NCBI GenBank assembly: GCA_964426675.1
Contig: CAYRRM010000014.1
Coordinates: forward strand, 922-64,921
Length of the DNA stretch: 64,000 nucleotides
Source: an uncultured Lentisphaera sp.
GTDB lineage: Bacteria > Verrucomicrobiota > Lentisphaeria > Victivallales > GWF2-50-93
Direction of reading: 5' to 3'
The position numbers and the translations under genes are program-made. Below, piece by piece: positions 1,349 to 60,527 of this stretch (position 1 is its first letter; each line of letters begins with the position of its first letter). The notes under the pieces are model-generated. The model ran no database searches. It was given only the letters and a program-made list of their open reading frames with translations, and was not told the origin of the DNA.

Positions 1349-2562
1349 CCTCTTAAAACTCTCTTTATTGTTTTAACTATATAATCGAGATCTGTTTTTC
1401 TTAAATCCGGATAGATTGGCAAGGAGACACATTCTCTTGATAATTTTTCTGAAACAGGAAAATCCCCATCAGAAAAAAAATATTTTTCCTTGTAGTATTT
1501 ATGCATATGCAAAGGAATATAGTGAACGCTTGTTATAATGCCATTTTTTTTGAGTTTTTCGATAAAAGAGTCTCTGTTAACTTTATTTTTTCCTTCTCTT
1601 ATTCGAATCGGATATAAATGCCAGGAACTAATTATTCCTTCTCTTTCATATGGCAACGTTATAATATCGGAAAGATCTGAAAGCATCAAATTATATAACT
1701 TTGCGATTTTCGCACGCTTTTCCATGAAAACATCAGCTTTTTTGAGTTGATGAATCCCGATTGCAGCCATTATATCAGGCATATTATATTTATAACCTGG
1801 AGCAATAATTTCATATCGCCATGACCCACTCGCTGTAAAACGTTTCCAGGCATCTTTGCTTATCCCGTGGAGCGACATTATCCTTATACGCTCATCATAT
1901 TCAGGATTATTGCACACGGCCATTCCACCTTCACCAGTAGTTATGGTCTTATTGGCGTAAAAAGAGTAACACGCTATATCTGCTTCAGTTCCAGCCTTTA
2001 CAAATTTTCCAACAGCATTTTTGTAAAATGCAGGGCATGCGTGCGCGCAATCTTCGATTAATTTTGCATTTATTGTTTTTGCGATTTTCGCAATTTCAGG
2101 GATATTTGCTGGCGCCCCTCCAAAATGAACCGGTATTATTGCTCTTATATCACCGTGTTTATCTGGCACCCCTTTTAATTTTTTTCCCATGATGATTTTC
2201 TCAACAGTCTCTTTAAGAGAATCTACACTCATACAAAAGTCATCTTCATTGCAGTCAACAAAGACTGGTATTGCATTAAAATACCTTACCACTTCGGCAG
2301 TAGCAGCAAAAGTCATTGAAGGAACAATAACAATCTCATTTTCCTTCAGTCCTATTGCTTCAAGAGCAAGGTGTAGAGCCGCAGTGCATGAATTCAGTGC
2401 AATTGCAAATTTTGCCCCAATATATGATGCAAAATCAGTTTCAAATTTCCTGACCCGAGCCCCAGTTGTAAGCCAACCTGATTTAAGACAATCTACTACT
2501 TCTTTTATTTCATCTTTTCCCAATGATGCTTTATGAAAACTAATTTGCCTGATTTCTGACAT
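1345..2562 (-). CDS. DegT/DnrJ/EryC1/StrS-family PLP-dependent sugar aminotransferase
   Basis: 405-aa ORF with a family-typical N-terminus (GKDEIKEVVDCLKSGWLTTG) and PLP-lysine context SFYANKTITTGEGG. It is translationally coupled to the CapD-like dehydratase gene, the usual amino-sugar pair. Confidence 0.9.
   Translation of the reverse strand: MSEIRQISFHKASLGKDEIKEVVDCLKSGWLTTGARVRKFETDFASYIGAKFAIALNSCTAALHLALEAIGLKENEIVIVPSMTFAATAEVVRYFNAIPVFVDCNEDDFCMSVDSLKETVEKIIMGKKLKGVPDKHGDIRAIIPVHFGGAPANIPEIAKIAKTINAKLIEDCAHACPAFYKNAVGKFVKAGTEADIACYSFYANKTITTGEGGMAVCNNPEYDERIRIMSLHGISKDAWKRFTASGSWRYEIIAPGYKYNMPDIMAAIGIHQLKKADVFMEKRAKIAKLYNLMLSDLSDIITLPYEREGIISSWHLYPIRIREGKNKVNRDSFIEKLKKNGIITSVHYIPLHMHKYYKEKYFFSDGDFPVSEKLSRECVSLPIYPDLRKTDLDYIVKTIKRVLRG
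1702..1714. repeat. Iterated palindrome TGCGA-N3-TCGCA copy
   Basis: TGCGATTTTCGCA in the aminotransferase gene (-). Gene strand reads GCG AAA ATC GCA = AKIA. Confidence 0.95.
2080..2092. repeat. Iterated palindrome TGCGA-N3-TCGCA copy
   Basis: TGCGATTTTCGCA in the aminotransferase gene (-). AKIA. Confidence 0.95.
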
Positions 2563-2680
2563 TAAAATCCTCTTTTTTAGGTTATTAATTATGCCACAAG
2601 ATTCAACGACTTCAAATTTACAAAAAGGTATTTCTTAAAAGACTTTGCTTTTTATTGCTGTTATCTTATATTTATAACAT

Positions 2681-3190
2681 ATGAAATTTCCAGAAAAAAA
2701 TGAGAAATACATATCTCGTGATGAATATTTGTCTATGAGTGACAGTGAACTCTTGAAAAATTGTGAAATTTCTATGCTTCGGCGAACAGGAAAGGGCGGA
2801 CAAAAAGTAAATAAATGTTCTTCCTCTGTCAGATTGAAACACATCCCCACAAAGATAACCGTAATAAGTTCTGAAAGTAGGTATCAAGCAGAAAATCGTT
2901 CAATAGCTCTAAAAAAGTTAAGACGCCAGATAGCATTTCAATTAAGGGCCCCGACAGGTGATTTTAAAATAAATTTTCCTATCCCTTCCCTCAAAAATCC
3001 CAATTACCCACAATGGATTGCAAAAATCCTTGATGTTTTAGAGGAAAATTCTTATTCCGTATCGGATGCGGCTGCGAAACTCGCAATTTCGACAGGACAA
3101 TTAATAAAATTATTATCAAGAGACCCCGAATTATGCCAAAAAGTAAATATAGAAAGAAAAAAATTCTTTATGAAACCTCTGAATTTTTAG
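2681..3190 (+). CDS. Release-factor (RF-1) GGQ-domain protein, ArfB/peptidyl-tRNA-hydrolase-like
   Basis: 169 aa. RRTGKGGQKVNKCSSSVRLKHIPTKITVISSESRYQAENR parallels the class-I release factor domain 3 (GGQ loop followed by the R.THIPTG...ERSQ..N pattern). Too short to be prfA/prfB. Confidence 0.6.
   Translation: MKFPEKNEKYISRDEYLSMSDSELLKNCEISMLRRTGKGGQKVNKCSSSVRLKHIPTKITVISSESRYQAENRSIALKKLRRQIAFQLRAPTGDFKINFPIPSLKNPNYPQWIAKILDVLEENSYSVSDAAAKLAISTGQLIKLLSRDPELCQKVNIERKKFFMKPLNF
3073..3085. repeat. Iterated palindrome TGCGA-N3-TCGCA copy
   Basis: TGCGAAACTCGCA in the GGQ-domain gene (+). AKLA. Confidence 0.95.
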
Positions 3191-3221: not shown

Positions 3222-6200
3222 ATGAAAAAATTATATCTGTGCAAAATAATTTTGTTTTTTGCGATTTTCGCAAGTGGATGCTTCACAATTTTTGCTGAGA
3301 ATATTAACGAGCTCAGAGAAAAGGCAAATAGGCTCTTTAAAGAAGGGAATTACAATGATGCTCTCGAAATTTATAAAGAACTCTTATCGGGAAAAATTGA
3401 GAATTCATCTCCTGAAATAGATTTTACGAACGCTATGCCTTGTTTTTATAAATTAAGAAAAAACAGCGAGATAGATGAATTTAGAGAAAATGTAATCGAT
3501 AATTTCAAAGGAAATTGGAAGCTACTCTGGGTAGCTGGAAAAAGTTTTCTTGAACAATATCATATTGGACTCCTCATTGATGGCAAATTTGTTAGAGGCA
3601 TAGGAGGCATTGGAAAAAGAGTAAGTGCATATCGGCGTGATAGAGTAATGGGACTCCAGCTTTTCAATCAAGCATATGAAATTGTGAGTAAAACTAAAAA
3701 AGAGATACCAGAAGAAGAATTTTATAATTTTCTTATATCATTCGCAAACGCTATCAATTATTATGATAGTATATATCATCTTCAAGACCTCACAGATATC
3801 TCAACTTTACCCGATTATGATGAAGTTGACATTTATGGGATGAGAAGCTCTTTCGATAATATTTATATTGGAGCACCTGTAAACAAGGAGGGTAATCCAA
3901 TCTATTACTCAATACCTGCGAATTTCGCAACTGCAAAATCTGATGGAGAAAGATGGCGCTTTTTATTGCATCAGGCATCTCTTATCGCTCCTAAATACAA
4001 GGCTCAGGTTGATATGATATATGCAAAATTTTTATTCAGAAATTTTGGAGTGCAAACCATCATAACTAATTCATTTTATAGAAATTCAGGAAATAATGAA
4101 ATTCTATATGTAGTCCATACATTATCCGAAGAAGAAACAATTGCAAGATTTGCAACAGGAATAAAAAGATTCAAAATGCCCGATGAACATAATTATATAA
4201 AGATTATGAGAGAAGTTTCAAAAACAGACTATTTACCAGCTCAAGATGCATTAAATACCCTCGCAGAAATATTTAAAAATCGAAGGCAATACACTAAAGC
4301 CGTTGAATGTCTCCAGGAAGCTATTCAGAGATTTGCCGATAAATTAAACTTTCAGAATCAACTTATGGATATTGTTGGTGATTGGGGAGTCTTTCTCTCT
4401 GAAAAACCTTTTCCTGCCGGGAAAAATCCCATTTTAAGGCTTAGATACAGAAATGCGAAAATCGCAAATTTTGAAGCTTATCAGTTAAAAGTAGAAGAGC
4501 TCCTAAATGATATAAAAGAATATTTAAAGTCGAATCCTCCACAAGTAGAATGGGAAAAACTTGATCTTAATGACATTGGCAGTAGAGTTGTCTTGAAAAA
4601 TGAAAATAAATATATTGGTGAAAAAGTCGCAGAATGGAAAGTAGATTTAAATCCTAAAAAAGGATATTATGATAAAATTGACAATATTGAAGTTCCGATA
4701 TCAAAAGCAGGAGCATATCTGGTAACAGCCAAAATAGGTAATGGGAATATTGCGCGTATTACTTTGTTGTTAAATGATGTAGCAATCGTTCAGAAGTCAA
4801 ACAAAAATTCTTACATAAATTTTATTGCAGATGCACTGACTGGGAAACCTATATCCAATATTGATATTGAACTTTTCGTTTTTGAGAGACAAGAAATTGA
4901 TGAAAAATTATGGACTCCAGGTGGTAGACGTTATAATCTGGTAACAAAAAGCGTAAGAGGTAAAACTAATTCAGATGGTATTATCATTTTTAATAAAAAA
5001 GAATTGCTCAATTATTCAGAGAGTTTGCTAATCCTCAAGAGTCCTTCTGGTTTAATCTCATATCTTGACACAAAAAATATACTTTCTTTTTTTGAAATAG
5101 ATGATAGTTATGATTCAAAGCCAAAGGGATATATTATTACTGATAGGCCAGTTTATCGTCCTGGACAGCAAGTAAATTTCAAAATATGGTTAGGAGAGGC
5201 TAATTATGAAAAGTTAACCGGAGAATTCTCTGAATCTGAATTTGCCGGAAGAAAAATAACAATAGTAATCAGTGATTCATTTGATAACAAGGTTTATGAA
5301 GAGACTCTAACGGCTGATAATTTTGGAGGACTTAGCGGAAATTTCAAACTAAAAGAAGGCTGTCATCTTGGAACATATCGTATTTCTTCAAGTCATTCAG
5401 ATTTACACAATATAGGATTTTTTAGAGTTGAAGAATATAAAAAGCCAGAGTTTGAAGTAAGTATAGAAAGTCCAGAAGAACCTGTTGTTCTGGGAGAAAA
5501 GATAAAAGCAAAGATAAAAGCAAAGTATTATTTTGGGGAACCAGTCACAAACGCAACTGTAAGATATAAAGTTGAGCGGTATCAACACGATGCTTATTTT
5601 TTCGTTCCGCATCCGTGGGATTGGCTGTATGGAAAAGGTTATTGGTGGCAGGGGGAAAATTATGAATGGTATAGAGGATGGTTTAATTGGGGATGTCCGC
5701 CGCGCCCAAGACCCTTGTGGAAAACTTATGAACCACTTCCCCCTGAATTGATAGCGCAAAATGAAGTTCCACTCGATAAAAATGGAACAGCAGAAATTAT
5801 AATAGATACCTCGCTTGCAAAAGATATTTATGGAGAAAAAGATCAGAAGTATGAAATAACTGCTGAAGTTGTAGATTCCTCGAGAAGAACAATTTACACA
5901 AAAGGGTCATGCATAGCTGCAACAAAACCATTCAGAATTATTGCCTGGGTTGACGAAGGTTGGCAACGGCCTGGAGAAACTATATCTGCGAATTTCGCAG
6001 CCCAAACTCCAAATGGGCGACCGGTTAAAGGAGAAGGAAAATTATCAATGTTCAAAATAAAATATAACGAAGATGGTGTGCCGTCAGAAAAACTAATTCA
6101 ATCGTGGAATTTGGAAACAAATGAAGATGGGCGTGCATCAATTAAGATAAAAGCTCCTTCCGCAGGACAATACCGTTTATCCTATGTGATGGAGCAAAAG

Positions 6201-9200
6201 GGAAAAAAGGAAGAAGGCGGATGTATTTTTAACATATTTGGAAAGGAGCTGAATGAGAGCGAATATCGCTTCAATGATATCGAAATTATAAGCTCAAAAA
6301 GCGAATATAATGAAAATGAGAGAGCCTTGTTCAGAATAAACACAAAGAGAAAAAATTCTTTTGTCTTATTATTTGTAAGGCCTGAAAATACAGTATATCC
6401 TGAACCAATTTTGTTGTATCTAAAAGATGGAACTATTGAGTATGAAATAGCTGTTTCAAAAAAGGATATGCCTAATTTCTTCCTTGAAGCAATTACTGTG
6501 GCCGAAGGAAGAATTTATAAAACGGTAAAAGAGGTCTTTGTCCCCCCAGAAAAATACTCTCTTAATGTGGAAATCCTACCTAGCAAAGAAAAGTATAAAC
6601 CAGGAGAAGATGCTAACGCAACTATAAAGGTTATGGATGCAAATGGGCATTCAATTGCGAATTCTTCAGTGGTAGTTTCTATTTACGATAAATCAATTGA
6701 ATATATAAGCGGAGCTTCCAATGTGCCAGATATAAAGGAATTTTTCTGGAAATGGCGTAGACAATTTTACTCAATTACCAGGACAAATACAAATTACTAT
6801 CTTACAAACATAGTTAAACCTGATGAAAAAGCTTTCCCTATCATAGGTATTTTTAGAAACATAGATTTAACTGCTGAAAGTTTCGAGGACGAACTAGATG
6901 GATTGCCTGTGAAAAGATATGGAGGGTCCCCATTTAAAAGAACTTTTTTAAGAAGCGAAGCGGCGGGATGGGCAACGATGGAAGCAAAAAATAGCATTAC
7001 TCAGGGATCAGTTTTAGAAGAAATAGATGAGATAATGTTCAGTAATCCAGAGATGAAAGACGTAGCAGTCCGTAAAAATTTCCTCGACACAGCGTTATGG
7101 GTGGCTAACCTCACTACAGATGAAAACGGTGAAGCGTCTATAAAACTGAAAATGCCAGAAAATCTGACAACCTGGAAGGTAAAAGTCTGGACGCTCGCTT
7201 CCGGCACGCGTGTTGGACAGGGAGAAACAGAAGTTATTACCAACAAGGACTTTATCATCAGACCACAAGCTCCAAGATTTTTTATCCAGAACGATAAAGT
7301 AACCCTATCAGCAATTATACATAACTATCATAAATCAAGCAAAAAAGCAAAGGCAATAATCAAACTGAATTCCAATTGTCTCGTTATAACTGATAAGAAT
7401 AAGTATCCCGAAAAGCAAGAGCTCGAAATAGGATCGGGAGAAGAAAAAAGAATAGATTGGAACGTATGTGCATTGTCTGATGGAGAAGCGGTAATTACAA
7501 TGGAAACAGTTACAGATAATGACTCTGATGCCGTAGAAACAAAAATCCCTGTATATGTTCATGGAATGTTGAAGACAGAATCTTTCAGTTCATCTTTAGG
7601 AAATGACGATAATTATGGCGTAATAGAAATGCAAATTCCAGAGGACTGTCGTGAAGAGGAAAGTGTTTTGGAAATACATTATTCACCAAGTCTTGCGCTT
7701 GCAATTCTCGACCCAATACCATATCTATGTAACTATCCTCATGGTTGCACTGAACAGACATTAAATAAATTTCTTCCTCTTGTAATTACAAGAAAAACAC
7801 TTTTAGATATGGGACTAAAGTTAGATGATATAACAAATAAACCGGTAAGTTTAGATGCACAACAAATAACGGAAGGAAACAAAAATTATGAATATTTTAA
7901 TAAGGAAAAATTTGAAGATATATTTTCTGTTGAACTTAGAAGAATTCAAAATATGCAACTTTCTGATGGTGGGTGGGGGTGGTTTTCTGGCTATGGAGAA
8001 TATTCTACTCCACATACCACAGCAATTGTAATGCATGGACTAATTCTTGCGAGAAATATTGGGATAGATGTTAGTAAAATAGTATTAGAAAATGGCTTGA
8101 AATGGTTGGAAAATTATCAAAAAAATCAAATTGAAAAACTTTGTAAACACGATTTCAAGGAAGGAGAAGAATGCAAAGAAGCACATCCATCCAATTATAA
8201 GATTTCGGCTGATAATATAGATGCACTCGTATACTACGTCCTTGCTGAGGGAAAAATATTAGATAAGGAAATGACGCGAATTTTATATAGAGATAGAAAT
8301 AAACTGAGTGTATATGGCAAGACATTACTTGCTTTAGGCCTCTATCTTAATGGAGAAGAGGAAAAACTTGCAATGCTCAAGAAAAATATTTCTCAATATC
8401 TTGTGCTTGATAATGAAAATCAAACTGCATATTTAAATCTGAATAATGGGTGGTATTGGTGGTATTGGTATGGTGATGAAGTAGAAGCAAATGCTTTCTA
8501 TCTAAAACTTCTTTCTCTAACAGAACCAAACTCAGAACTAAGTCCCAAAATCGTAAAATACCTCATTAATAATAGAAAGAATGGAAGATACTGGAAATCA
8601 ACAAGGGATACATCGTATTGTATCGAGGCAATTTCAGATTTTATAAGATCTTCGAAAGAAAAACAACCAGATATTGAAGTTGAAGTAATCCTTGATGGAA
8701 AAATGCTCAAGAAAGAAAAAATTACCGCAGAAAATTTATTTTCATTCAATAATTCAATTACGCTTAAAGCAAAAGAACTCAGCCCCGGTAAACATAAACT
8801 TGAATTCAAAAAAACAGGAAAAAATCCGTTATATTACAGTTCATACTTAACATATTATACTACAGAGGAATTTATCACGAAAACTGGACTCGAAATAAAA
8901 GTAACGCGAAACTATTACAAACTTATAAAAAAAGAAGAAGAAAATAACGCACCCGATAAAAATGGCCAGATAGTCCAGCAGAAGGTAGAAAAATATATGC
9001 GGATTCCAATCAAAAATTATGATGTCCTTAAAACTGGAGACATGATAGAAGTAGAATTAGTTATAGAAAGCAAAAATGATTATGAATATTTAGTTTTTGA
9101 AGATATGAAAGCTGCAGGATTAGAACCTTGCGAAATTCGCAGCGGATATAATGAAAATGAAATTGGAGCTTTCATCGAATTTAGAGATGAAAAAGTATTA

Positions 9201-11370: not shown

Positions 11371-11371
11371 G

Positions 11372-14321: not shown

Positions 14322-15440
14322 ATGAAATACTTCGGGTACAATTTAATATATCCTCAAATATTTTTTTCATGTGCTTCGATTCAAAAAGCAAAAGAGTTTT
14401 TTAAAGATAAGTCCACTGTGATTCTAATTACCGGAAAGAGCGCATTAAAAAATGGCCTTCAAGAAAAATTAGAAAAAATTCTATCTGACCTGCAATACTT
14501 CTCTTTATGTGGAATTGTTGGCGAAGAAGCTCCTCTTGAATCAGTTGATGCTATTGTTGATTTTGCTAAGAAAAAAAATGCTGATGCGATTTTCGCAGTA
14601 GGGGGAGGCTCAATAATTGATGCGGCAAAAGCTGCCTCTGTGGTGATTACGAATGGGGGAAAATGTTCAGACTTTTTTTTCTCAAAAAGAAAAATCACTA
14701 AAAAAGGATTATTTCTTATTGCTGTTCCAACTACAGCTGGAACAGGCGCTGAAATCACAGAAAATTCAGTCCTGATAGAGAAAGCAACTATGATAAAAAA
14801 ATCAATCCGGGGCAAAGAACTTATTCCTGATATAGCAATAATTGATCCAGAATTGACATTTTCCTGCCCATCACATATATCAGCACAAAGTGGAATGGAT
14901 GCCCTTGTCCAGGCTATTGAATCATTTACATCCCCCGAATCAAATACCGTAAGTTCTCTTTTAGCTATGAAGGCTACAAAAATTTTGATTGAAAACTTAC
15001 CTGATGCCGTTCTGGGGAAAGAAGATGCAAAAATTTCGACAGCAGAAGGAAGTTTACTTTCTGGAATGGCTTTTTCACATACAGGTCTTGGTGCTGTGCA
15101 TGGTTTAGCTCATCCAATTGGGGCAAAGTGCTCTTTACCGCATGGAAGAGTATGTGGAATTTTGATGAGAACTATTTTTAGAGAAAATTTGAAGAAAATT
15201 AATGGGCTCTACGATGAATTAGCGAGGTTTTGCAATTGTAGTGATTCAGAGGAATTTTTAAATTTGCTCGATAAAATATCTGAAAGAATAGGAATTCCTG
15301 CGAAATTCGCAGATTCTAACTTGAAAGATGAAGATTTTAATTTTATTATAAAAAACTGTCGTAGTAGAAGCATGGAAAGGAATCCATATCAATATTCCGA
15401 TGATGAAATAAATGAAATTTTAAAGAAATTATTCACTTAA
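14322..15440 (+). CDS. Iron-containing (group III) alcohol dehydrogenase family protein
   Basis: GGGSIIDAAKA nucleotide-binding motif, PTTAGTGAE, and His-rich metal site (GLGAVHGLAHPIG). GAGGAG precedes the ATG. Confidence 0.85.
   Translation: MKYFGYNLIYPQIFFSCASIQKAKEFFKDKSTVILITGKSALKNGLQEKLEKILSDLQYFSLCGIVGEEAPLESVDAIVDFAKKKNADAIFAVGGGSIIDAAKAASVVITNGGKCSDFFFSKRKITKKGLFLIAVPTTAGTGAEITENSVLIEKATMIKKSIRGKELIPDIAIIDPELTFSCPSHISAQSGMDALVQAIESFTSPESNTVSSLLAMKATKILIENLPDAVLGKEDAKISTAEGSLLSGMAFSHTGLGAVHGLAHPIGAKCSLPHGRVCGILMRTIFRENLKKINGLYDELARFCNCSDSEEFLNLLDKISERIGIPAKFADSNLKDEDFNFIIKNCRSRSMERNPYQYSDDEINEILKKLFT
14585..14597. repeat. Iterated palindrome TGCGA-N3-TCGCA copy
   Basis: TGCGATTTTCGCA in Fe-ADH (+). 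AIFA. Confidence 0.95.
15299..15311. repeat. Iterated palindrome TGCGA-N3-TCGCA copy
   Basis: TGCGAAATTCGCA in Fe-ADH (+). AKFA. Confidence 0.95.
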
Positions 15441-16152: not shown

Positions 16153-16965
16153 TTAATTTTCTTTGAGGTTTGAGAGAAGGAATTTCTTGGGATCATTTTC
16201 CAGTCGCATTTTTGCAGGAGTGATTTTAAATTTTCTATTGAATGCTCTATAAAAGGTTTCAATATTTGTAAAACCACATAATTGAGAGATTTCCTTTATT
16301 GGTGTTTTAGTTTTTAGTAGTATTTTTCTCGCTTCAGAAAGTCGTCTATCAAGTAAGATTTCGTGAGGTGTTTTTCCAAAATATTTTTTACATATTACGT
16401 GAAGATGGGCTGGACTTACCTCTGCTATACTTGCGAGTTTCGCAATAGAAATATTTTGTGGGAATTGCTGTTTTATGAAGTTCCATAGATTTTGCATATT
16501 ATCTGGTATATTCAGACTTAATTTTCTTTTTTCAAAAAGTTGTGCTTCCCACGTTAACTTTGCGAGAATATAATTCTGAATTTCTATCTTGCTCATCAGA
16601 TTTGAATGGAAAGCATGATGAATAGTATCTGAGAAATAGATTGCTTCATCGGGGTTTCTCCATAGTGAGACATGGGGATAATTTCTTTTTTTATTTTTGT
16701 GAGAGTTGAATGTTATGCATAGACATTCATATGGTTCTTCTTTGTCGGCTTTGTAAACAGTATAGTCACCATGAATATGCCAGAACATTGTTCCGCAGCC
16801 AAATTTAATTTCTGTTTTGTATCCCTGTGGTTGGAAATAGACATATCCTCCAGTTATTAACTCAATGTATTCTATAGCTTCTGGTATTACTCTTGGATTG
16901 ATTTTTGCATTTCTTGGAGCTTTGTAATATCCTATATTTAGCAGATTATATTTTTGTTTTTTCAT
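16153..16965 (-). CDS. AraC-family transcriptional regulator
   Basis: 270 aa with a cupin-like N-terminal half. The C-terminal double HTH (IAKLASIAEVSPAHLHVICKKYFGKTPHEILLDRRLSEARKILL...ISQLCGFTNIETFYRAFNRKFKITP) is classic AraC/XylS. Confidence 0.85.
   Translation of the reverse strand: MKKQKYNLLNIGYYKAPRNAKINPRVIPEAIEYIELITGGYVYFQPQGYKTEIKFGCGTMFWHIHGDYTVYKADKEEPYECLCITFNSHKNKKRNYPHVSLWRNPDEAIYFSDTIHHAFHSNLMSKIEIQNYILAKLTWEAQLFEKRKLSLNIPDNMQNLWNFIKQQFPQNISIAKLASIAEVSPAHLHVICKKYFGKTPHEILLDRRLSEARKILLKTKTPIKEISQLCGFTNIETFYRAFNRKFKITPAKMRLENDPKKFLLSNLKEN
16432..16444. repeat. Iterated palindrome TGCGA-N3-TCGCA copy
   Basis: TGCGAGTTTCGCA in the AraC gene (-). Gene strand reads AKLA. Confidence 0.95.
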
Positions 16966-19545: not shown

Positions 19546-21090
19546 TTATTCCCATTCTATAGTGCCTGGAGGTTTTGAGGTAATGTCATATACTACTCTA
19601 TTTACGCCGTCTACTTCGTTGATTATTCTATTTGCGATTTTCGCAAGGAGTTCATATGGAAGTCTTACCCAATCTGCGGTCATTCCATCTATACTGTCTA
19701 CTGCGCGTAATGCTACTACATTGTCATAAGTTCTTTCATCACCCATTACGCCTACTGTTTTTATTGGTAGGAGTACGGCAAAAGTTTGCCATGTTTTATA
19801 GTAGAGGTCTGCTTTTTTCATTTCTTCTACTACTATACTATCGGCATTTTTAAGTATTTCGAGGTATTCTTTTTTTATTTCACCGATAATTCTCACTCCA
19901 AGTCCTGGTCCAGGGAAAGGCTGGCGTAATATTATTTCATCTGGAAGTCCAAGTTGTTTGCCTACTTCTCTTACTTCATCTTTGAAAAGTTTCGCTAGAG
20001 GCTCAAGGAGTTTTAACTTCATTTTTTTTGGTAATCCTCCAACGTTGTGATGGCTTTTTATCATTGCGCTTGGATTACCTGCTATTGGAATGCTTTCAAT
20101 TACATCTGGGTATGTAGTTCCCTGGGCAAGGAAGCCAGCATTTTTTATTTTTTTTGCTTCTTTATTGAATATATTTACAAATTCTCTGCCAATAATTTTT
20201 CTTTTTTTCTCCGGAGATGAGACGCCTTTTAATTTTTTGAGGAATAAATTTGTGGCGTTTACGTACCTGAGGGGCATTTGCATATTTTTTGAGAATAATT
20301 CAATAACTCTTTTTTCTTCGTTTTTTCTCAGGAGTCCGTTATTAACAAAAATTGGCTTAAGTTGATTTCCTATTGCCTTATGTATTAAAACGGCTGCAAC
20401 GGAGGAATCAACTCCACCACTAAGTCCAAGAATTACATTTTTATCTTCAACTTTTTCTTTTATTTCTTTTAACGATTTTTCTATAAATGAAGTCATTGTC
20501 CAGTTAGCCGAGGCTGCACAGATTTTGATACAAAAATTTCTGAGCATATCTATTCCATTTGGTGTATGTACGACTTCAGGGTGAAACTGGATGCCAATAA
20601 TTTTTAAGTTGGAATTTTCGGCGGCCGCGAATTCCGTATTATTTGTAGTTGCAATAGATTTAAAATTTTGGGGGAGAGAGAGAACCTTATCACCGTGACT
20701 CATCCATACAATATTTTTTGTTGGTAGGCCATGAAAAAACAAATTATTTGTATCAGCCGTTAATTCAGTTCTGCCGTATTCTCTGGATTTTGAACGCTCT
20801 ACTTTTCCTCCGAGTAAATGAACGATTAATTGAAATCCATAACAAATTCCAAGAATTGGGATTCCCAGTTTAAATATATTTTTATCACAACATGGAGCAT
20901 TTTTGGAATATACACTGGCTGGACCTCCGCTAAGGATTATACCTATTGGAGATAGTCTCTTTATTTCTTCCGCTGTTGTATTGTAGTGAAGTAGCTGGCT
21001 AAAGACCCCGCATTCACGTATTCTTCTTGCTATTAGCTGGCTGTATTGTGAACCGAAATCAAGAATTGTTATAAGTTCTTTTTCTTTCAT
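19546..21090 (-). CDS. guaA: GMP synthase (glutamine-hydrolysing)
   Basis: 514 aa. GATase-1 ([13 protein letters not shown]), ATP-PPase SGGVDSSV, and the conserved C-terminus PPGTIEWE. Confidence 0.97.
19633..19645. repeat. Iterated palindrome TGCGA-N3-TCGCA copy
   Basis: TGCGATTTTCGCA in guaA (-). AKIA. Confidence 0.95.
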
Positions 21091-31069: not shown

Positions 31070-31070
31070 G

Positions 31071-49369: not shown

Positions 49370-49371
49370 AT

Positions 49372-50859: not shown

Positions 50860-53448
50860 ATGTCAAAGACATGTATTCCTGTTGACCTTTGTTGTGAATT
50901 CAAAAAAAATCCTATCGGAATTGATGAAGTAAAACCACGACTTTCATGGAAATTGGCGGATACTCGGCAAGGTGCAATGCAGACAGCCTATCGGATTCTC
51001 GCTGCTTCAACCAGGGATGCTCTTGATAAAAAGGTAGATCTCTGGGATACAGGACGCGTGCGAACATCACAATCATTGGATATCGAATATGCTGGCAAAA
51101 AAATCACATCACGATCAAAAGTTTGGTGGAAAGTAAAAATATGGGATATGGAAGGAAAAGAAAGTCTCTGGAGTAAACCAGCTTTTTTTGAACTTGGTCT
51201 TTTGAAAAAAAACGATTGGCAGGCAAAGTGGATTGGCCGCCCCAGTCTCAAGAACCGAGAAGGAGAACCCTGTCCATTTCTCCGAAAAAAATTTTTAATC
51301 AGTGAACAGATTGCTTCAGCGAGAGTATATGTTTCTGCGCGGGGATTGTTTGAACTTCATATCAATGGAAGACGAGTTGGTAAGGACTATTTTACCCCAG
51401 GATGGACTGATTACAACAAGCGCATCCAGTATCTTACTTATGATGTTACCGATCTTCTTGTTAAAGGAGATAATGCTGTTGGTGCAATACTTGGTGAAGG
51501 TTGGTTTGCCGGTAACCTTGGTTGGGAAAAAAAGCGTTGGAATTATGGTGATCAGCTTTCTTTTTTATTGCAACTCGAAATTAAATATAGTAATGGAAAA
51601 ATCGAAACAATATGCAGCGATTCTGATTGGAAAACGAATATAGGTCCAATCACAGTTTCTGACATATATAATGGTGAAACTTATGATGCTAACAGAGAGC
51701 TTATTGGTTGGGATACTGCTACGTATGATGATAGTTCATGGGATGAAGCAATAGTTTATCCTTCTCCTAAGGCGAAACTTGTTGCAAAACGTAATCCTCC
51801 CGTGCGTATGCAGGAGGAGTTGAAACCTCAAACAGTAAATGAAATTCAACCCGGAATTTTTATATTTGATCTTGGGCAAAACATGGTTGGTTGGGCTCGG
51901 GTTCGTCTCAAAGGACAAATGGGAGACAAGGTTAAAATCCGTTTTGCTGAAATGTTGAATGATGATGGGACCATGTATACTGCTAATCTGCGTAGTGCAA
52001 AAAGCACAGATTACTACATTTTTGGAAGTAAAAATGAGGTCATATGGGAACCTCATTTTACTTTTCATGGGTTCAGATATGTTGAACTATCAGGGATAAA
52101 TTATAAACCAACGAAAGATGATCTCATAGGTGTTGTTTTGCATTCAGAAATCCCACAGATTGGAAAATTTGAATGTTCTGATAAACTTATTAATCGCCTC
52201 CAGAAAAATATTCAATGGGGACAGAAAGGAAATTTTCTCGAAGTACCAACAGATTGCCCTCAACGCGATGAAAGACTTGGTTGGACGGGCGATGCTCAGG
52301 TGTTTGTGCGTACTGCAGCATTCAATAGAGACGTTGCATCCTTTTTCGAAAAATGGTGCGAGGATATTACTGATTCGCAGTTCCCTGATGGTGGGGTTCC
52401 ACATGTTGTGCCAAATGTCCTTGGTAAAGGGCATGGGTATTGTGCAGCCTGGGCCGATGCGGTAATCATATGTCCATGGATAATTTATCTTTGCTATGGC
52501 AATAAACGCATTCTCGAAAGACAGTATAAATCAATGTGCAAATGGGTTCAGTGGCGTATTAATAACTCCAGGAATTTAATCAATGATAGTGCATGTTTTG
52601 GAGATTGGTTAGCCATAGACATCGCCGAAGGAAATCCAGGAAAATCACCAACCCCACGTGATCTGATTTCAACAGCCTACTTTGCTTATACAACAGGGAT
52701 AGTTGCGAAAATCGCAAAAATACTTGGTCTGAAAGCTGATTCAAAAAAGTATACCAAACTTTACAACCAGATCAAAAAGGCATTCAATCGTGAATTTGTA
52801 AGTCAAACTGGACGTCTTGTAGGTGATACTCAGACGGCTTATGCTCTTGCCTTAGGATTTGATTTGCTTCCTTCTTCAAAGGTGGACTACGCAGGAAAAA
52901 GATTGGTAAAAGATATAGAGTCCAGAGGATTTCATTTATCTACAGGATTTGTTGGTACTCCTCTATTAGCACCAGTTCTTTCTAAAATTGGGCGTACGGA
53001 TGTTGCATATAAACTTGTGCTTCAGAAAACCTATCCAGGCTGGATATACTCTATCCTTCAGGGCGCGACAACTATGTGGGAACGATGGAACAGTTATACA
53101 AAAGACAAAGGATTTGGGGATGTTGGTATGAATTCATTTAATCACTATGCTTACGGTTCTATCGGTGAGTGGCTTTACAATACTGTAGCAGGTATAGACC
53201 TTGATCCAGAATGCCCCGGATACAAACATATTATCTTTAAACCACAACCTGGTGAGGGTATTAACTGGGCTAAAGCCGAACTTCAGACACGGTATGGTCT
53301 GCTTGCATGTAAATGGAAAATTTCCGGAAAAAAAATGCAAATAAAGATTACTGTACCGCCAAATACTCATGCAACTCTTATTTTGCCTGGACAAAAACCG
53401 AAGAGAATTCAGGCAGGGATATATGAGTATGAATTTCCTTGCATTTAA
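50860..53448 (+). CDS. Alpha-L-rhamnosidase, glycoside hydrolase family 78
   Basis: 862 aa. AGGAGG Shine-Dalgarno. NPIGID...PRLSWKL N-terminal domain, catalytic (alpha/alpha)6 motif PTDCPQRDERLGWTGDAQ, and MNSFNHYAYGS near the C-terminus. No signal peptide. Confidence 0.9.
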   Translation: MSKTCIPVDLCCEFKKNPIGIDEVKPRLSWKLADTRQGAMQTAYRILAASTRDALDKKVDLWDTGRVRTSQSLDIEYAGKKITSRSKVWWKVKIWDMEGKESLWSKPAFFELGLLKKNDWQAKWIGRPSLKNREGEPCPFLRKKFLISEQIASARVYVSARGLFELHINGRRVGKDYFTPGWTDYNKRIQYLTYDVTDLLVKGDNAVGAILGEGWFAGNLGWEKKRWNYGDQLSFLLQLEIKYSNGKIETICSDSDWKTNIGPITVSDIYNGETYDANRELIGWDTATYDDSSWDEAIVYPSPKAKLVAKRNPPVRMQEELKPQTVNEIQPGIFIFDLGQNMVGWARVRLKGQMGDKVKIRFAEMLNDDGTMYTANLRSAKSTDYYIFGSKNEVIWEPHFTFHGFRYVELSGINYKPTKDDLIGVVLHSEIPQIGKFECSDKLINRLQKNIQWGQKGNFLEVPTDCPQRDERLGWTGDAQVFVRTAAFNRDVASFFEKWCEDITDSQFPDGGVPHVVPNVLGKGHGYCAAWADAVIICPWIIYLCYGNKRILERQYKSMCKWVQWRINNSRNLINDSACFGDWLAIDIAEGNPGKSPTPRDLISTAYFAYTTGIVAKIAKILGLKADSKKYTKLYNQIKKAFNREFVSQTGRLVGDTQTAYALALGFDLLPSSKVDYAGKRLVKDIESRGFHLSTGFVGTPLLAPVLSKIGRTDVAYKLVLQKTYPGWIYSILQGATTMWERWNSYTKDKGFGDVGMNSFNHYAYGSIGEWLYNTVAGIDLDPECPGYKHIIFKPQPGEGINWAKAELQTRYGLLACKWKISGKKMQIKITVPPNTHATLILPGQKPKRIQAGIYEYEFPCI
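52704..52716. repeat. Iterated palindrome TGCGA-N3-TCGCA copy
   Basis: TGCGAAAATCGCA in GH78 rhamnosidase (+). AKIA. Confidence 0.95.
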
Positions 53449-53615: not shown

Positions 53616-55274
53616 ATGAGTAAAATATTTAAATATCGGGTGGGATTTCTTGGATGTCCATCAAAACCTGACGTAAGGTGGACAGAACGGAATGTATTAA
53701 AGTTAAAAAAACTCGGTTTTAATACATTGCAACTCAATATTGCATGGGGATCACGTCCGGGAGATGAACCACTAAATCTTGAAGATGTTGTTGATATGTC
53801 AGAAATAAAGGAATTTATACAAAAACTTCCACTAAGATCTAGTCGTGAGGTAAAAAAAATCAAGACTCGTAAGGAAAACCTTATGGCTCGAATAAAACTA
53901 TGCAAAAACTTGGGTATGCGAAGTATTTTTCATTTTGGCGCCCCATACAATATGCATTGTAGATTCGGGGATAATCCGCCAAATTGCCTAAATGATCCTG
54001 TCATTCAGAATTTCTATTCAGCTCTTTTGATCGCATTTGATAGACAATTTCCGGGAGTAGATGATCTTCTCCTTTATACCTATGATCAGGATGCATGGCT
54101 CTGCAATGAATTTGGAACATGCCCTAAATGTGTCGGTATTCCACTCCATTATCGCGTTAGCAAGTTCGTTAATTCCATTGCTAATACATGGAAAAAGATA
54201 AATCCAAATGGGAAATTATGGTGGGAACCATGGGAATTATCTGCCGGGCAAGTTTAGACTATTCCTCTTCTCGATAAAAATGCTGTGGGACTTTCTCTTC
54301 ATTCCAATATTGCAGAGGTACAGGCGACAATGCCTGTTGATCATTGGCTTGAAAATACTATCAGGATGGCCAGACAGGAAAAACTACCAGTAATTGTAGA
54401 GTATTTTCTCGGCGCTCCAACCGAGGAAGTTGAGCCCTTTCTTCATCTTAGTTGGCCTCTTGTAGTCCTGAGAGGATTAAAAAAAATAGCCTCTCTTAAT
54501 CCAGATGGAATCAAAGAATATTATGGTATTATTCCAGAGGATTATGATGCAAATCTTCACACTACTTCTCTTTTCCTTTCAGATCCTGAAATTACCGATG
54601 CCAAATTATTAGAAAAACTTTCAAGAAACTATGGTAAGGCTATGAGTGATATACAGAAATTCTGGTTTTTGACAAGTGAGGCAATGGATTTCTTCCCATG
54701 GTACACATCATGGTATATCCGAGAAATAGGAAAGTGCAGACCAGACCATGCCATGACTGCCGCATTTATACGCGGACAACAGGCACATACGCCTTCGTGG
54801 GAGTCAACACGACGCGCAATTTTCATGAAGACTGATAACATTCAACCTGATCCCTGGATGCTTGAAGACGTCCAGTTGCAATGCGAACTCTCAGCTGAAA
54901 AACTTACTGAAGCAATTAAACTTGGGAAAAAAATTGCAAAGAAAATTCCTGAGCGTTTCAAATTCAAACTGGTTCTATCAGATTTCATCGAATTCAGGCG
55001 TCGTGCCCTATCATATGCTTATCATATTCGTGAAACGAACCTTACGTTTATTATCAGACAACACTTGAAAGAAAGAAAAAAAATTCCCACACGCATCATA
55101 GATGAATTAAAAGCTATTCTAAAAGCCGATATGAAAAATCAGAAAAGTAAAGAACCGTGTTTTTCCGCACTTAAGCTTCTTGATGTAGATCCTGCGAAAT
55201 TCGCAGGAAAATATTTCGTTGTTATATCGGATGACAAGAGGGAAAAAGGTGGGTTTAGTGTGACGTCGCGTTGA
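53616..55274 (+). pseudogene. TIM-barrel-like glycosidase-related gene interrupted by one in-frame TAG (54255-54257)
   Basis: Track ORFs 53616..54257 and 54285..55274 are in the same frame ((54285-53616) is divisible by 3). The only interruption is ...SAGQV-TAG-TIPLLDKNAVGLSLHS... Read through, it gives about 551 aa. Could be a nonsense pseudogene, a sequencing error or readthrough. Confidence 0.6.
55193..55205. repeat. Iterated palindrome TGCGA-N3-TCGCA copy
   Basis: TGCGAAATTCGCA in the TAG-interrupted gene (+). AKFA. Confidence 0.95.
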
Positions 55275-58197: not shown

Positions 58198-58205
58198 AAA
58201 ATAGT

Positions 58206-60527
58206 ATGGCAAAATTTTTAAAAACAAGTTTTGGCGGTTTTCAGTTAGATGGCCGTGAGTTCGTGATAACAGAAAAAGAAACACCACGAGCATTGGTAAA
58301 CTACATGTGGAATGAAAAATTTATTTCCTCTGTAAGCCAACACGGAGCAGGAGAGGGAGCGTATAAGGAAAGAGCTGCCCAGTATATAGACCGTAGAGGT
58401 AGAAATATACTTATAAAGAATGGTAGAAGATATTTTTATATCAAAGACTCTTTATCAGGTGATTATTGGTCTCCCGGTTGGCACCCAGCCCAAAAAAAAG
58501 TCTCAAAGTTTAGATGTGTAAATGGACCGGGATATTCAATAATATCATCCGAGAGAAAAAAGATTTTCACGCAAATGAGAGTTTTTGTTCCACCAGATTT
58601 TCCTTGTGAAATATGGACTATTACCTTGCGAAATTCGCAAAATCATGAAACCGAATTAAAATTCTACTCTTATGTGGAATTTGCACTTGATGGTTATCAA
58701 CGTTATTGTGACTACTTTGGAATGTTACATGGGGAATATTATCCTGATATTAATGCTGCTCAAGGGTGTAATCGTGCAATAGAAAGAACACATGAATTTT
58801 TTGACGGATTTATTGCTTCGAATATAAAACCAAGCGGTTTCGAAACCTCGCGCGATGCCTTCGTAGGATATTGGGGACATTATGATTATCCACTTGCTCT
58901 GAAAAGAGGTTTCCTTACAAATAGCCTTGCCTCATGCGAATATCTTGCCGGTGCTCTTGAACACAGCATTAAACTTCTTCCAGGAGAAGAAAAATCATTT
59001 AACGTATTTATTGGGGCATCAAGTGGTTATGAGATGACACGTGATATTGTTACTTCACTTTCAAAGGATCTCGCTGTGGATGAACAATATGCGAAACTCG
59101 CAAAATTAAAAGATGAAGCTATCAGAAAAATTACTATAAAAACACCAGATAAAAGAGTAGATTATCTCATAAATGTGTGGATAAAACAACAGATGCAGGT
59201 TTATGCGGATGTTGGCAGTGATAATGGCAGAGGTTTTCGCGATGCAATGCAAATGCTATGGGCAACTGCTTCATACGATCTACAATACACAAAAAGAATG
59301 ATAATAGAATGCCTTGAGCACCAGTTCGCAGATGGTCACACTTTGAGAGGTTGGTTACCAATAGACGATCACCATTACTGTGATGGGCCTGTTTGGATTG
59401 CCCCTGTAATTGATGCCTATTTGAAAGAAAGCGGAGATATTGAATTTCTTAATCATAAAGTTAAATACTTTGATAAAGGCATTGGAACTATATGGGAACA
59501 TCTTGAAAGAGGAACCTTGCATCTGACTGAAGATATTGGAGAGCATGGACTTACAAAATGCCATTTCGGAGATTGGAATGATTCGCTTACAGGTGTTGGT
59601 ATTAACGGCAAGGGAGAATCCGTATGGGCCTCAATTGCCGCGGTTTTTAGTTTGAAAATTGCCGCAGATATTTCAAATCGCGTTTTAAATGATAGTATTA
59701 AAACACAGAATTTTTTAGAAAAAGCTGAAAAAATGACTCAGGCAATCAATACCCATGCTTGGGACGGAGAGTGGTATTTAAGAGCAATAAATGATTATGG
59801 AGAAAAAATAGGAACAAAAAATGAAAAAGAAGGTAAAATTTATCTTTTGCCACAAGTTTGGGCTATTATGGCTGGAGTTGCAGATGAAGAAAGAAAGAAA
59901 ATAATTTTAAAAGCCGTAGATGAATATCTTGAAACAGATTGTGGAAGTCGCGTCCAGTTCCCTCCATATACAAAACCCAATTTAAGAATAGGTAGAATAA
60001 CATTACTTGTTCCAGGAATATGGGAAAATGGCACAGCTTATTGCCATGCAAACTCATTTAAAGTAGTGGCAGATTGTTACGCAGGAAGGGGAGATATAGC
60101 CTATAGGTCTTTTAAAAAAGCAATGCCTGATAGCCAGTGGAATCCATCAACTCATTCAGGTTGCGAACCGTATGTTATGACAAACCAATTCCTCGGACCC
60201 GAAAATAGACGCGCAGGGAAAAGTCTCTGGGCATGGATGACCGGTTCCGCTAGTTGGTATTTTCGTGCAATGACTCAGTGGATATTAGGTGTTCGGCCAG
60301 ATTTTGATGGGCTCTTGATCGATCCTTGTTTGCCATCAGCATGGAAAAATTGTAGACTTGAGCGGGATTTCAGAGGCGCAAGATATGTTATCGAAATTAA
60401 AAATCCACATGCTTTGCAAAAGGGTAGATTACGTATTATAGTGGATGGACATGAAATTGCTGGGAATAAAATTGTGATTTTCGCAGATGGTAAAATACAC
60501 AATGTAAAAGCTGTTCTATCTTCTTAA
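58206..60527 (+). CDS. GH94-like glycoside phosphorylase (cellobiose/chitobiose phosphorylase family)
   Basis: 773 aa, cytoplasmic. GRGFRDAMQ and CHFGDWNDSL correspond to the GH94 R-D and D-W-N-D catalytic-centre motifs. Six-hairpin region with C-terminal beta domain. Confidence 0.7.
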   Translation: MAKFLKTSFGGFQLDGREFVITEKETPRALVNYMWNEKFISSVSQHGAGEGAYKERAAQYIDRRGRNILIKNGRRYFYIKDSLSGDYWSPGWHPAQKKVSKFRCVNGPGYSIISSERKKIFTQMRVFVPPDFPCEIWTITLRNSQNHETELKFYSYVEFALDGYQRYCDYFGMLHGEYYPDINAAQGCNRAIERTHEFFDGFIASNIKPSGFETSRDAFVGYWGHYDYPLALKRGFLTNSLASCEYLAGALEHSIKLLPGEEKSFNVFIGASSGYEMTRDIVTSLSKDLAVDEQYAKLAKLKDEAIRKITIKTPDKRVDYLINVWIKQQMQVYADVGSDNGRGFRDAMQMLWATASYDLQYTKRMIIECLEHQFADGHTLRGWLPIDDHHYCDGPVWIAPVIDAYLKESGDIEFLNHKVKYFDKGIGTIWEHLERGTLHLTEDIGEHGLTKCHFGDWNDSLTGVGINGKGESVWASIAAVFSLKIAADISNRVLNDSIKTQNFLEKAEKMTQAINTHAWDGEWYLRAINDYGEKIGTKNEKEGKIYLLPQVWAIMAGVADEERKKIILKAVDEYLETDCGSRVQFPPYTKPNLRIGRITLLVPGIWENGTAYCHANSFKVVADCYAGRGDIAYRSFKKAMPDSQWNPSTHSGCEPYVMTNQFLGPENRRAGKSLWAWMTGSASWYFRAMTQWILGVRPDFDGLLIDPCLPSAWKNCRLERDFRGARYVIEIKNPHALQKGRLRIIVDGHEIAGNKIVIFADGKIHNVKAVLSS
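58627..58639. repeat. Iterated palindrome TGCGA-N3-TCGCA copy
   Basis: TGCGAAATTCGCA in the GH94-like gene (+), third frame: TTG CGA AAT TCG CAA = LRNSQ. Confidence 0.95.
59090..59102. repeat. Iterated palindrome TGCGA-N3-TCGCA copy
   Basis: TGCGAAACTCGCA in the GH94-like gene (+). AKLA. Confidence 0.95.

Follow-up and report, generated by a model that had tools for sequence, protein, structure and literature searches.

Why should one short palindrome recur time and again inside genes that are unrelated to one another? The question is raised by a 64,000-nucleotide stretch of DNA from an uncultured Lentisphaera sp. (GenBank assembly GCA_964426675.1, contig CAYRRM010000014.1, positions 922 to 64,921 of the forward strand), which in its whole length is called the window here. 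The element at issue is a 13-bp dyad, TGCGA-N3-TCGCA, first noticed in a reading of the letters without database searches (the sequence-only reading), in which 21 copies were counted by eye. An exact pattern search for TGCGANNNTCGCA across the 64,000 nucleotides returned 21 exact copies, and these match the hand count at every one of its 21 coordinates.

The first step is to ask how many copies would be expected. The window has a GC content of 34.2% (G 0.186, C 0.156), close to the value of about 0.17 for each base that had been assumed when an excess of the order of a thousand-fold was estimated. In 100 dinucleotide-preserving shuffles, the mean was 0.01 copies and the maximum was 1. Stricter null models were run on the 38 long open reading frames (ORFs) that make up 88% of the window. 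Shuffling the order of codons gave a mean of 0.04 copies. Shuffling synonymous codons within each gene, a procedure that keeps the protein and the codon usage of the gene, including the codons that the motif itself contributes, gave a mean of 0.22 copies and a maximum of 3. The measured excess of the dyad is about 2000-fold against composition, which bears out the earlier estimate, and about 100-fold against the codon-preserving null; the observed/expected ratio under that null, which the sequence-only reading had proposed to determine, is therefore about 100 and not near 1. An origin by chance or as a codon artefact is ruled out by the dinucleotide, codon-order and synonymous-codon shuffles. 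A third-order Markov scan of 8-mers revealed no comparable over-represented word, and its top words were sub-words of the dyad.

The excess does not end with the window. It corresponds to positions 53,076-117,075 of the JGI metagenome contig Ga0116245_10000005 (478,608 bp), and 16.2 kb of that contig beside the window hold 7 further exact copies, which brings the total to 28 copies in 80.2 kb, or one per 2.9 kb. Confinement to the window, which would have spoken against a genomic phenomenon, was not found, as copies persist both in the flanks and in related genomes (see below), and the flanks make it very unlikely that the observed/expected ratio over the whole source genome is close to 1. The spacing of the 28 copies is Poisson-like (coefficient of variation 0.94), and no periodicity or regularity was detectable over the 80 kb. 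Within the window, the spacings range from 187 to 10,923 bp. The longest dyad-free stretches, at 29447-38723 (about 9.3 kb) and 41794-52703 (about 10.9 kb), are still compatible with Poisson spacing; they hold a gene for a 1721-residue GH2-like protein and a block with a GntR/LacI-type regulator, a prepilin-like protein and a CBM9 protein.

What, then, is the unit that is repeated? It is a 15-position dyad, Y-TGCGA-(3-bp A/T tract)-TCGCA-R. The symmetrised logo obtained from unascertained sequence reads Y-T-G-C-G-A-(A>T)-W-(T>A)-T-C-G-C-A-R. As had been suspected by eye, the flanks are pyrimidine on the 5' side and purine on the 3' side, with Y at position -1 and R at position +14 in 87% of the copies, and positions further out are random. 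The spacers of the 21 copies are TTT (8), AAT (5), AAA (3), ATT (2), AAC (2) and GTT (1). The earlier statement that the spacer is nearly always A/T stands on this tally, but it can be put more exactly, since all 18 of the A/T-only spacers are A-tracts of the form AnTm without a TpA step (AAA, AAT, ATT or TTT), the others being AAC or GTT. When the distance between the arms was varied, GCGA-Nx-TCGC occurred in the window 24 times at x = 3, never at x = 0-2 or 4-7, and once at x = 8. Half-sites outside full dyads were at expectation (TGCGA 34 versus 37 expected, TCGCA 37 versus 31 expected). Only 8 one-mismatch sites were found against 21 exact copies, though 30 one-mismatch sequences are possible. 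No other palindrome of the 5-N3-5 type is enriched in the window, the next commonest being pure A/T words with at most 7 copies, which means that there are no compensatory stem variants. The dyad counts only when it is complete, with exactly 3 bp between its arms.

The variants named in the sequence-only reading are all present, together with four one-mismatch sites that it had not listed:

6258..6270: core-only variant AGCGAATATCGCT, GCGA-N3-TCGC core retained, both outer bases altered
29639..29651: one-mismatch variant CGCGAAATTCGCA, outer T to C
39151..39163: one-mismatch variant CGCGAAAATCGCA, outer T to C, in an SDR gene, read Gly-Ala-Lys-Ile-Ala
43102..43114: one-mismatch variant TGTGATTTTCGCA, C to T in the CpG of an arm
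60473..60485: one-mismatch variant TGTGATTTTCGCA, C to T in the CpG of an arm
31910, 35331, 46626 and 51059: further one-mismatch sites

Among the one-mismatch variants in the window, 5 out of 8 are CpG transitions. A signature of CpG deamination was considered on this ground; it is suggestive in the window, but it was not upheld in a larger set of 262 kb + 233 kb of related loci.

The next question is where the copies lie. All 21 are inside long ORFs of functionally unrelated genes on both strands, and the alpha-2-macroglobulin (A2M) gene alone holds five. The strand given below is that of the host gene:

1702..1714, minus: exact copy TGCGATTTTCGCA in a DegT/DnrJ/EryC1 aminotransferase gene (1345-2562), read Ala-Lys-Ile-Ala
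2080..2092, minus: exact copy in the same aminotransferase gene (1345-2562), read Ala-Lys-Ile-Ala
3073..3085, plus: exact copy with spacer AAC in an RF-1 domain gene (2681-3190), read Ala-Lys-Leu-Ala
3260..3272, plus: exact copy in the signal-peptide region of the A2M gene (3222-9362), read Ala-Ile-Phe-Ala
3917..3929, plus: exact copy in the A2M gene (3222-9362), read Ala-Asn-Phe-Ala
4454..4466, plus: exact copy in the A2M gene (3222-9362), read Ala-Lys-Ile-Ala
5987..5999, plus: exact copy in the A2M gene (3222-9362), read Ala-Asn-Phe-Ala
9129..9141, plus: exact copy in the A2M gene (3222-9362), minority frame 0, Cys-Glu-Ile-Arg
14585..14597, plus: exact copy in an iron-containing alcohol dehydrogenase (Fe-ADH) gene (14322-15440), read Ala-Ile-Phe-Ala
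15299..15311, plus: exact copy in the Fe-ADH gene (14322-15440), read Ala-Lys-Phe-Ala
16432..16444, minus: exact copy in an AraC-type regulator gene (16153-16965), read Ala-Lys-Leu-Ala
19633..19645, minus: exact copy in guaA (19546-21090), read Ala-Lys-Ile-Ala
23761..23773, minus: exact copy in a TPR protein gene (23134-25653), read Ala-Lys-Ile-Ala
29434..29446, plus: exact copy in a GH2 gene (28736-31069), read Ala-Ile-Phe-Ala
38724..38736, plus: exact copy in an acyl-transferase (FabD-like) gene (38110-39039), read Ala-Lys-Phe-Ala
39938..39950, plus: exact copy in an alkaline phosphatase gene (39837-41237), read Ala-Ile-Phe-Ala
41781..41793, plus: exact copy in a rhamnosidase-like (GH78-like) gene (41234-44038), minority frame 1, Arg-Lys-Ser
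52704..52716, plus: exact copy in a GH78 rhamnosidase gene (50860-53448), read Ala-Lys-Ile-Ala
55193..55205, plus: exact copy in an ORF of unknown function (54285-55274), read Ala-Lys-Phe-Ala
58627..58639, plus: exact copy in a GH94 gene (58206-60527), minority frame 1, Arg-Asn-Ser
59090..59102, plus: exact copy in the GH94 gene (58206-60527), read Ala-Lys-Leu-Ala

The frame xxT GCG xxx xTC GCA, which encodes Ala-x-x-Ala, is used by 18 of the 21 copies, in the form of AKIA, AKFA, AKLA, AIFA or ANFA. The codons that this frame demands are rare in this genome: GCG makes up 10% of the alanine codons, ATC 14% of isoleucine, TTC 25% of phenylalanine and CTC 13% of leucine. Both spacer orientations are seen on the sense strand, and copies are found in all three frames. 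The five tetrapeptides occur 23-24 times in the window where 2.2-2.3 would be expected, a 10.4-fold over-representation, and 18 of 23 occurrences are encoded exactly by the motif. They are 6.7- to 14.4-fold over-represented in three related loci that bear the motif (L091, L092 and L256, described below) and 1.1-fold in 418,000 residues from 80 motif-free relatives. An excess of about 10-fold here against 1.1-fold in motif-free relatives indicates that the DNA word has been imposed on the proteins and not the reverse. The dyad is imposed at the level of DNA, irrespective of gene, strand or codon preference.

The claim that every copy is genic and none intergenic holds within the window but carries little statistical weight, as zero among 21 is not significant at 88% coding (P about 0.07), and one of the 28 copies in the 80.2 kb is intergenic. 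No other copy found in the source genome is cleanly intergenic. This one (L255 14440-14464) lies about 975 bp past the end of the window, directly after the gene of a 1130-residue CBM9 protein, and makes up the tip of a canonical intrinsic terminator with an 11-bp stem, GGGCGCTGCGA-TTT-TCGCAGCGCC(C)TCTTTTTTT (-21.2 kcal/mol), followed by a U-run.

Several familiar kinds of repeat were rejected from the same data. A repeat family of the REP, MITE or Ssn type does not fit copies that are intragenic, have unique flanks and give a logo that is random beyond -1/+14. Operators of a transcription-factor regulon do not fit either, with 21 of 21 copies inside ORFs of unrelated genes on both strands, nor does a CRISPR repeat in the window, where spacings of 187-10,923 bp separate copies with unique flanks. 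A Chi-type hotspot was set aside as well, the element being a perfect palindrome that is about 100- to 2000-fold enriched. The sequence-only reading had excluded a mobile-element end, a terminator family and the operators of one regulon because the host genes are unrelated and lie on both strands. This was corroborated by the unique flanks, by the in-frame copies and by the identity of the hosts, which include housekeeping and carbohydrate-active genes (DegT aminotransferase, RF-1, A2M, Fe-ADH, AraC, GuaA, TPR, GH2, FabD, GH94 and others).

Is the dyad a property of this genome only? By its GuaA protein, the organism falls within Lentisphaerota/Victivallales. To date, 80 GTDB species-representative loci gathered by GuaA, 1.33 Mb in total, have been searched. 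They contain 2 exact copies, none with an A/T spacer, and show no enrichment. The following loci were also compared; all statements on density rest only on unascertained loci, namely the window flanks, L091, L092 and L256:

L091: GuaA 82% identical, GC 37%, 9 exact copies in 17.8 kb
L092 (GCA_964526605.1, contig CAZGJP010000008.1): GuaA 79% identical, GC 57%, 8 GCGA-N3-TCGC of which 1 exact
L094: GuaA 78% identical, GC 42%, motif content 1
L251 (GWF2_45_14): more distant, GC 46%, motif content 0
L252 (GWF2_52_8): more distant, GC 54%, motif content 1
L256: reached through a protein cluster and not through the motif, GC 48%, 7 core copies (6 exact) in 12.5 kb

L092 uses a dialect in which the core GCGA-(A/T-rich N3)-TCGC is retained and the outer base is relaxed to Y/R (YGCGA-N3-TCGCR), which is reminiscent of the dialects of the DNA uptake sequences (DUS) of Neisseriaceae. 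When metagenomes were scanned for pairs of dyads separated by 141-201 bp, at least 118 loci were obtained, with GC contents from 33% to 67%. This set is heterogeneous and biased by its ascertainment, and it includes CRISPR arrays with the 13-mer in the repeat (L143/L163, L197), tandem repeats (L181, L225) and a prophage operator cluster (L150). Many loci among the matches listed have dispersed, in-frame copies with unique flanks, and exact-sequence protein look-ups showed that proteins of five loci of this dispersed type are annotated as coming from metagenome-assembled genomes of Victivallales or Lentisphaerota:

L245: GC 33%
L160: GC 36%
L238: GC 48%
L201: GC 49%
L186: GC 50%

The dyad is a signature of at least two lineages of Victivallales, with GC contents of 33-57%, and is lacking in their next relatives; L094, L251 and L252 count as motif-free. 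The densest dispersed cluster seen is in L146 (26-462): some 440 bp of a single aldose-1-epimerase-like gene, beside an S10-type ribosomal protein operon, contain four exact copies, of which two are read Ala-x-x-Ala and two Cys-x-x-Arg. The idea that this cluster is intergenic, and a clue to an autoregulated reader, was dropped because the copies fall inside the gene.

How new copies arise can be seen from a codon-level alignment of the genes shared by the window, L091, L092 and L094. At two conserved AKIA sites, the C-terminus of GuaA and column 681 of the TPR protein, the window and L091 both use GCG AAA ATC GCA. L092 retains the GCGA-N3-TCGC core at both, with G as the outer base at the guaA site, and L094 has alternative codons such as GCT AAG ATA GCA and GCA AAA ATG GCA, which leave no motif. 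Other copies needed the replacement of amino acids: in L091, SRLS became AKIA, VIVA became AILA and GEIL became AKIA; in the AraC-type gene of the window (16432), QTLA became AKLA, the L091 orthologue having Gln-Thr-Leu-Ala and no motif. New copies come by point substitutions, which are synonymous where Ala-x-x-Ala pre-exists and change the amino acid elsewhere. The alignment of orthologues that the sequence-only reading had suggested thus revealed amino-acid-changing substitutions as well as synonymous ones. Only 2 of 7 site positions are common to the window and L091, which indicates that gain or turnover went on after the two lineages split. A comparison of L186 with L256, at 87% nucleotide identity, showed that 4 of 4 sites of L186 are intact, with one change in a spacer and none in an arm, and that L256 has one site more. 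The probability of retaining all four by chance is about 0.001, a rough estimate from a small sample of 4 sites. Copies are retained between diverged relatives.

The same 13-mer also turned up in other settings. Two phage contigs, L165 (6357-12094) and L257 (7953-17859), encode terminase, portal and head protease and have a GC content of 58-59%. They carry 7 and 12 copies of GCGA-N3-TCGC, of which 4 and 7 are exact, against 0-4 for any other spacing. The 12 core copies of L257, in 19.2 kb, all lie from the portal gene onward (the downstream 11 kb), with none in the first 7.9 kb. In IMG/VR, 37 viral or prophage contigs (L096-L132), mostly with GC contents of 53-70%, contain two TGCGA-WWW-TCGCA palindromes 20-25 bp apart, usually TGCGATAATCGCA or TGCGATTATCGCA, which in many contigs flank a TTGACA/TGTCAA hexamer. 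Examples are the following:

L103, 8399-8444: palindrome pair
L108, 11459-11506: palindrome pair
L121, 8516-8564: palindrome pair

There is a weak match between the region in L103 and the CI-like/Cro-like region of Paracoccus phage vB_PbeS_Pben1, and by their sequence context the pairs near CI/Cro-like genes look like the operator arrangement of a repressor. Prophages that use the same palindrome as operator pairs imply that dimeric DNA-binding proteins of the CI/Cro-like kind can read the dyad. A scan of IMG/VR for dispersed pairs found 2 contigs only, neither of the dispersed intragenic type. In L253 (7189-10189, IMG/VR), five copies of an extended 17-mer, GTGCGATAATCGCACAG, lie 0.2-1.2 kb apart; this is probably a family of phage regulatory sites distinct from the phenomenon in Victivallales. 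In a CRISPR array (L163 414-7083, L143 1171-1953) from the same digester sample series as the organism of the window (ERZ795045, Ga01161xx), the repeat of 36 bp, ATTCCACTCTCTGCGAAAATCGCAATTTTGAGGCGG, includes the 13-mer without a mismatch. The array is found downstream of an ORF of 1371 residues, which is the size of Cas9, and a possible anti-repeat; no dispersed copies were seen in the 6.8 kb flank of the array (P about 0.1). The 13-mer itself is not unique to the present phenomenon, as it is also a phage operator and part of some CRISPR repeats.

Taken together, the dyad is very probably a lineage-specific, hyper-iterated element that acts at the level of DNA, of the class formed by the highly iterated palindrome HIP1 of cyanobacteria, the uptake signal sequence (USS) of Pasteurellaceae and the DUS. 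It works like HIP1, USS and DUS, yet belongs to none of them. Judged from the sequence, it is most likely read as double-stranded DNA, sequence-specifically, by a symmetric dimeric protein, because of its exact symmetry, fixed spacing and A-tract centre, the lack of half-site enrichment and the lack of compensatory variants.

The favoured role is that of a self-DNA tag which biases uptake and/or recombination in natural transformation, a reading to which a probability of roughly 0.4 is given. The dyad would mark DNA of the organism's own kind for preferential uptake and/or recombination, copies would spread through the population by molecular drive, and selection at the protein level would filter which frames and positions survive. 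This role is ranked first because uptake bias with recombination is the only mechanism experimentally known to produce such enrichment (USS, DUS), and because HIP1 has been reported to enhance transformation. A number of points weigh against it. The element is symmetric, unlike the known uptake sequences, which are asymmetric, and it is nearly absent from intergenic DNA (1/28), again unlike them. We know of no natural transformation in Lentisphaerota, and no candidate gene for a reader, a methyltransferase or competence was found in the window or its flanks (80 kb in all). The dense dyads on a phage contig fit a pure uptake drive only if the phage is a long-resident temperate one. The result on the conservation of sites rests on 4 sites.

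The first of the rivals holds that the copies are an array of binding sites for an abundant, sequence-specific protein that organises the chromosome (nucleoid or segregation), kept by weak purifying selection on each copy, a view put forward for HIP1 by Xu et al. It is unlikely, though much of the anatomy would suit it. An A-tract centre and the enrichment of the full dyad only are typical of a dimeric protein with shape readout, the sites are conserved at 87% nucleotide identity (L186/L256), and unrelated prophages employ the same 13-mer as an operator for a repressor, which means that dimeric proteins can read it. The matS site of E. coli has the same 5-N3-5 architecture. However, matS, parS, the Noc-binding sites (NBS) and the SlmA-binding sites (SBS) number in the tens per genome and do not occur about once per 3 kb; the density of the dyad, one per 2.9 kb over 80 kb, is similar in unrelated loci of related genomes, whereas sites of the matS/parS type come as a few to tens of copies in one region. 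Spacing over the 80 kb is Poisson-like without regularity, and selection per site is hard to see as strong enough to change residues and to raise tetrapeptides 10-fold. For HIP1, it has been argued that the element is selected and tied to nucleoid structure (PMC5861425).

The dyad could also be the target of a methyltransferase, either an orphan or part of a restriction-modification (R-M) system and possibly of the bipartite type, and accumulate through methylation-linked biased mismatch repair or selection. Palindromy and the fixed N3 spacer do resemble bipartite Type II sites, the arms GCGA and TCGC are the two halves of HIP1 (GCGATCGC), and in cyanobacteria two methyltransferases methylate sequences internal to HIP1 (PMC4390886, PMC6105098). 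The 5 of 8 window variants that are CpG transitions also speak for it, but the signal vanishes in the larger set, and no methyltransferase gene is present in the window. R-M targets are normally avoided rather than enriched. Moreover, 10 to 15 informative positions with an A-tract preference exceed the usual specificity of methyltransferases, and repair biases of the VSP type shift word frequencies modestly, not 100- to 2000-fold. This explanation is decidedly doubtful.

An improbable alternative is a self-marker, such as a Chi-like or anti-restriction tag, that spares DNA from a nuclease or defence system of the host and has been copied by resident phages. It would account for the 7 and 12 GCGA-N3-TCGC copies on the phage contigs L165 and L257, and the dyad is about as dense as Chi in E. 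coli. Yet Chi sites are asymmetric, biased in orientation and only few-fold enriched, the contig in question (L165/L257) may be a long-resident prophage, and the two contigs found in the scan of IMG/VR for dispersed pairs lack dispersed intragenic copies.

Action at the level of RNA, as a 5-bp hairpin in mRNA, or of the peptide Ala-x-x-Ala instead of DNA is very improbable. A small hairpin is possible (-4.8 kcal/mol) and most copies do encode Ala-x-x-Ala; however, there are no compensatory stem variants and no other enriched palindrome, the spacer is found in either orientation on the sense strand and all three frames are used, motif-free relatives encode the same peptides with other codons, the host proteins are unrelated, and no strand-specific conservation, G-U-tolerant variants or common structural role of the peptide was seen. 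Practically negligible is the view that the count stems from composition or codon usage, or that the copies are members of a repeat family (MITE/REP, CRISPR, tandem). Some of the metagenome matches do prove to be CRISPR arrays, tandem repeats or operator clusters (L143, L163, L181, L197, L225, L150), but in the window the flanks are unique beyond +/-1 and unrelated genes hold the copies in frame, only 0.22 copies are expected under the codon-preserving null, and relatives hold 2 copies in 1.33 Mb.

Returning to the self-DNA tag and its neighbours, one may tentatively suggest, as less likely than not, that the dyad is the footprint of an undescribed, sequence-specific system of DNA recognition limited to a subclade of Victivallales, be it the first self-recognition system of the uptake type in the Planctomycetes-Verrucomicrobia-Chlamydiae (PVC) group and the first built on a symmetric dyad that a dimer reads, or a new form of self-marking imitated by resident phages. 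No description of the motif, nor anything relevant, came up in full-text searches for the motif strings and related terms, in agreement with the sequence-only reading, whose author knew of none. If the suggestion is true, it would open an independent way into a question that is 30 years old, namely what HIP-type elements do. Lineages with and without the motif are close enough (GuaA 78-82% identical) that phylogenetic profiling should be able to pick out the genes responsible. In practice, the dyad offers a strong signature for the binning and taxonomy of these Victivallales, and it confounds codon and peptide statistics in their genomes.

A few features of the window stand apart from the dyad. 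Its gene content is housekeeping and carbohydrate-active. A protein of 708-738 residues is encoded at 11282-13498 with GreA/GreB domains only in its last 150 or so residues, so that its N-terminal extension, without a Pfam match, is unusually long. The only Rfam or ARAGORN matches in the window are the following:

15629-15721: tRNA-Ser(CGA)
44111-44187: tRNA-Met(CAT)

It remains to compare the dyad with known systems. Hyper-iterated short words are rare; HIP1, USS and DUS are known, and each has been informative on uptake, recombination or genome organisation. Among the less similar systems, the Ssn-related motifs (NTS) and the REP/BIME elements also have hundreds of palindromic copies tied to a cognate protein, and NTS modulates transformation (PMC11893778). 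However, the Ssn-related and REP hairpin repeats are 20-35 bp long and intergenic (PMC11893778), cluster around genes and are recognised as single-stranded hairpins, whereas the dyad has 13-15 bp, lies in frame and has no extended unit. The phage operators of IMG/VR (L096-L132) have identical arms and spacing (TGCGA-WWW-TCGCA), but they are paired, lie in intergenic control regions of GC-rich prophages, number 2-6 per contig and are not genome-wide, and their spacer is usually TAA/TTA, which contains TpA. The sites matS (GTGAC-N3-GTCAC), parS, and those of Noc and SlmA are likewise palindromes of 13 to 16 bp, matS with the same 5-N3-5 layout. They are read by dimeric proteins. In contrast to the dyad, whose local density would extrapolate to more than 1000 copies per genome, they number in the tens per chromosome, are bound to a region and do not distort the proteome.

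USS and DUS come closer. They occur about once per 1-3 kb in both orientations with 100- to 1000-fold enrichment, and the likeness in density that the sequence-only reading had pointed out is real, with 28 copies in 80.2 kb and similar values in L091 and L256. USS and DUS have lineage dialects, a frame bias, an excess of the encoded peptides and copies created at variable residues of orthologues (PMC2817400), and the dyad shares with them its density, dialects, frame bias, peptide imprint and copies at variable residues. The copy at the tip of a terminator recalls the USS/DUS pairs in terminators. The peptide imprint differs in degree: USS and DUS roughly double their tripeptides (PMC2817400), whereas the dyad raises five tetrapeptides about 10-fold. 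Further, the words of USS and DUS are asymmetric and occur in excess in intergenic DNA (PMC2817400), with an uptake bias that has been shown by experiment, and the dyad is perfectly symmetric and almost wholly intragenic.

The closest analogue is HIP1, as had been proposed from the letters: here too a palindrome is highly iterated in coding DNA, with an Ala-coding frame in 18 of 21 copies and, in a small sample, conserved sites. Like the dyad, HIP1 is palindromic, over-represented 15- to 300-fold or more, dispersed in unrelated genes, mostly read as peptides of the Ala-x-Ala type (Ala-Ile-Ala for HIP1, Ala-x-x-Ala for the dyad) and conserved between genomes with lineage variants. The arms GCGA and TCGC are the exact halves of HIP1 split by an A-tract, which may be coincidence. 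HIP1 is embedded in a CRISPR repeat of Synechocystis (PMC6604393), and this is paralleled by the 13-mer in the CRISPR repeat (L143/L163) from the same digester samples. It has also been reported to enhance transformation and proposed as an uptake sequence (bioRxiv 10.1101/2024.09.10.611283; 10.64898/2026.06.24.733823), although its function is still debated. HIP1 itself has 0 occurrences in the window. Orphan methyltransferases of the DmtA/DmtC type methylate HIP1, and no methyltransferase gene was found in the 80 kb around the dyads. It differs in having 8 informative positions against 15, and the dyad adds an obligatory 3-bp A-tract and outer T/A and Y/R positions; HIP1 belongs to cyanobacteria and the dyad to Lentisphaerota. 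The dyad is a second, independent palindromic example in a different, uncultured phylum, unusual in its sharp 15-position specificity, its strong imprint of about 10-fold on the proteome, its recognisable dialect and the motif-free sister lineages nearby.

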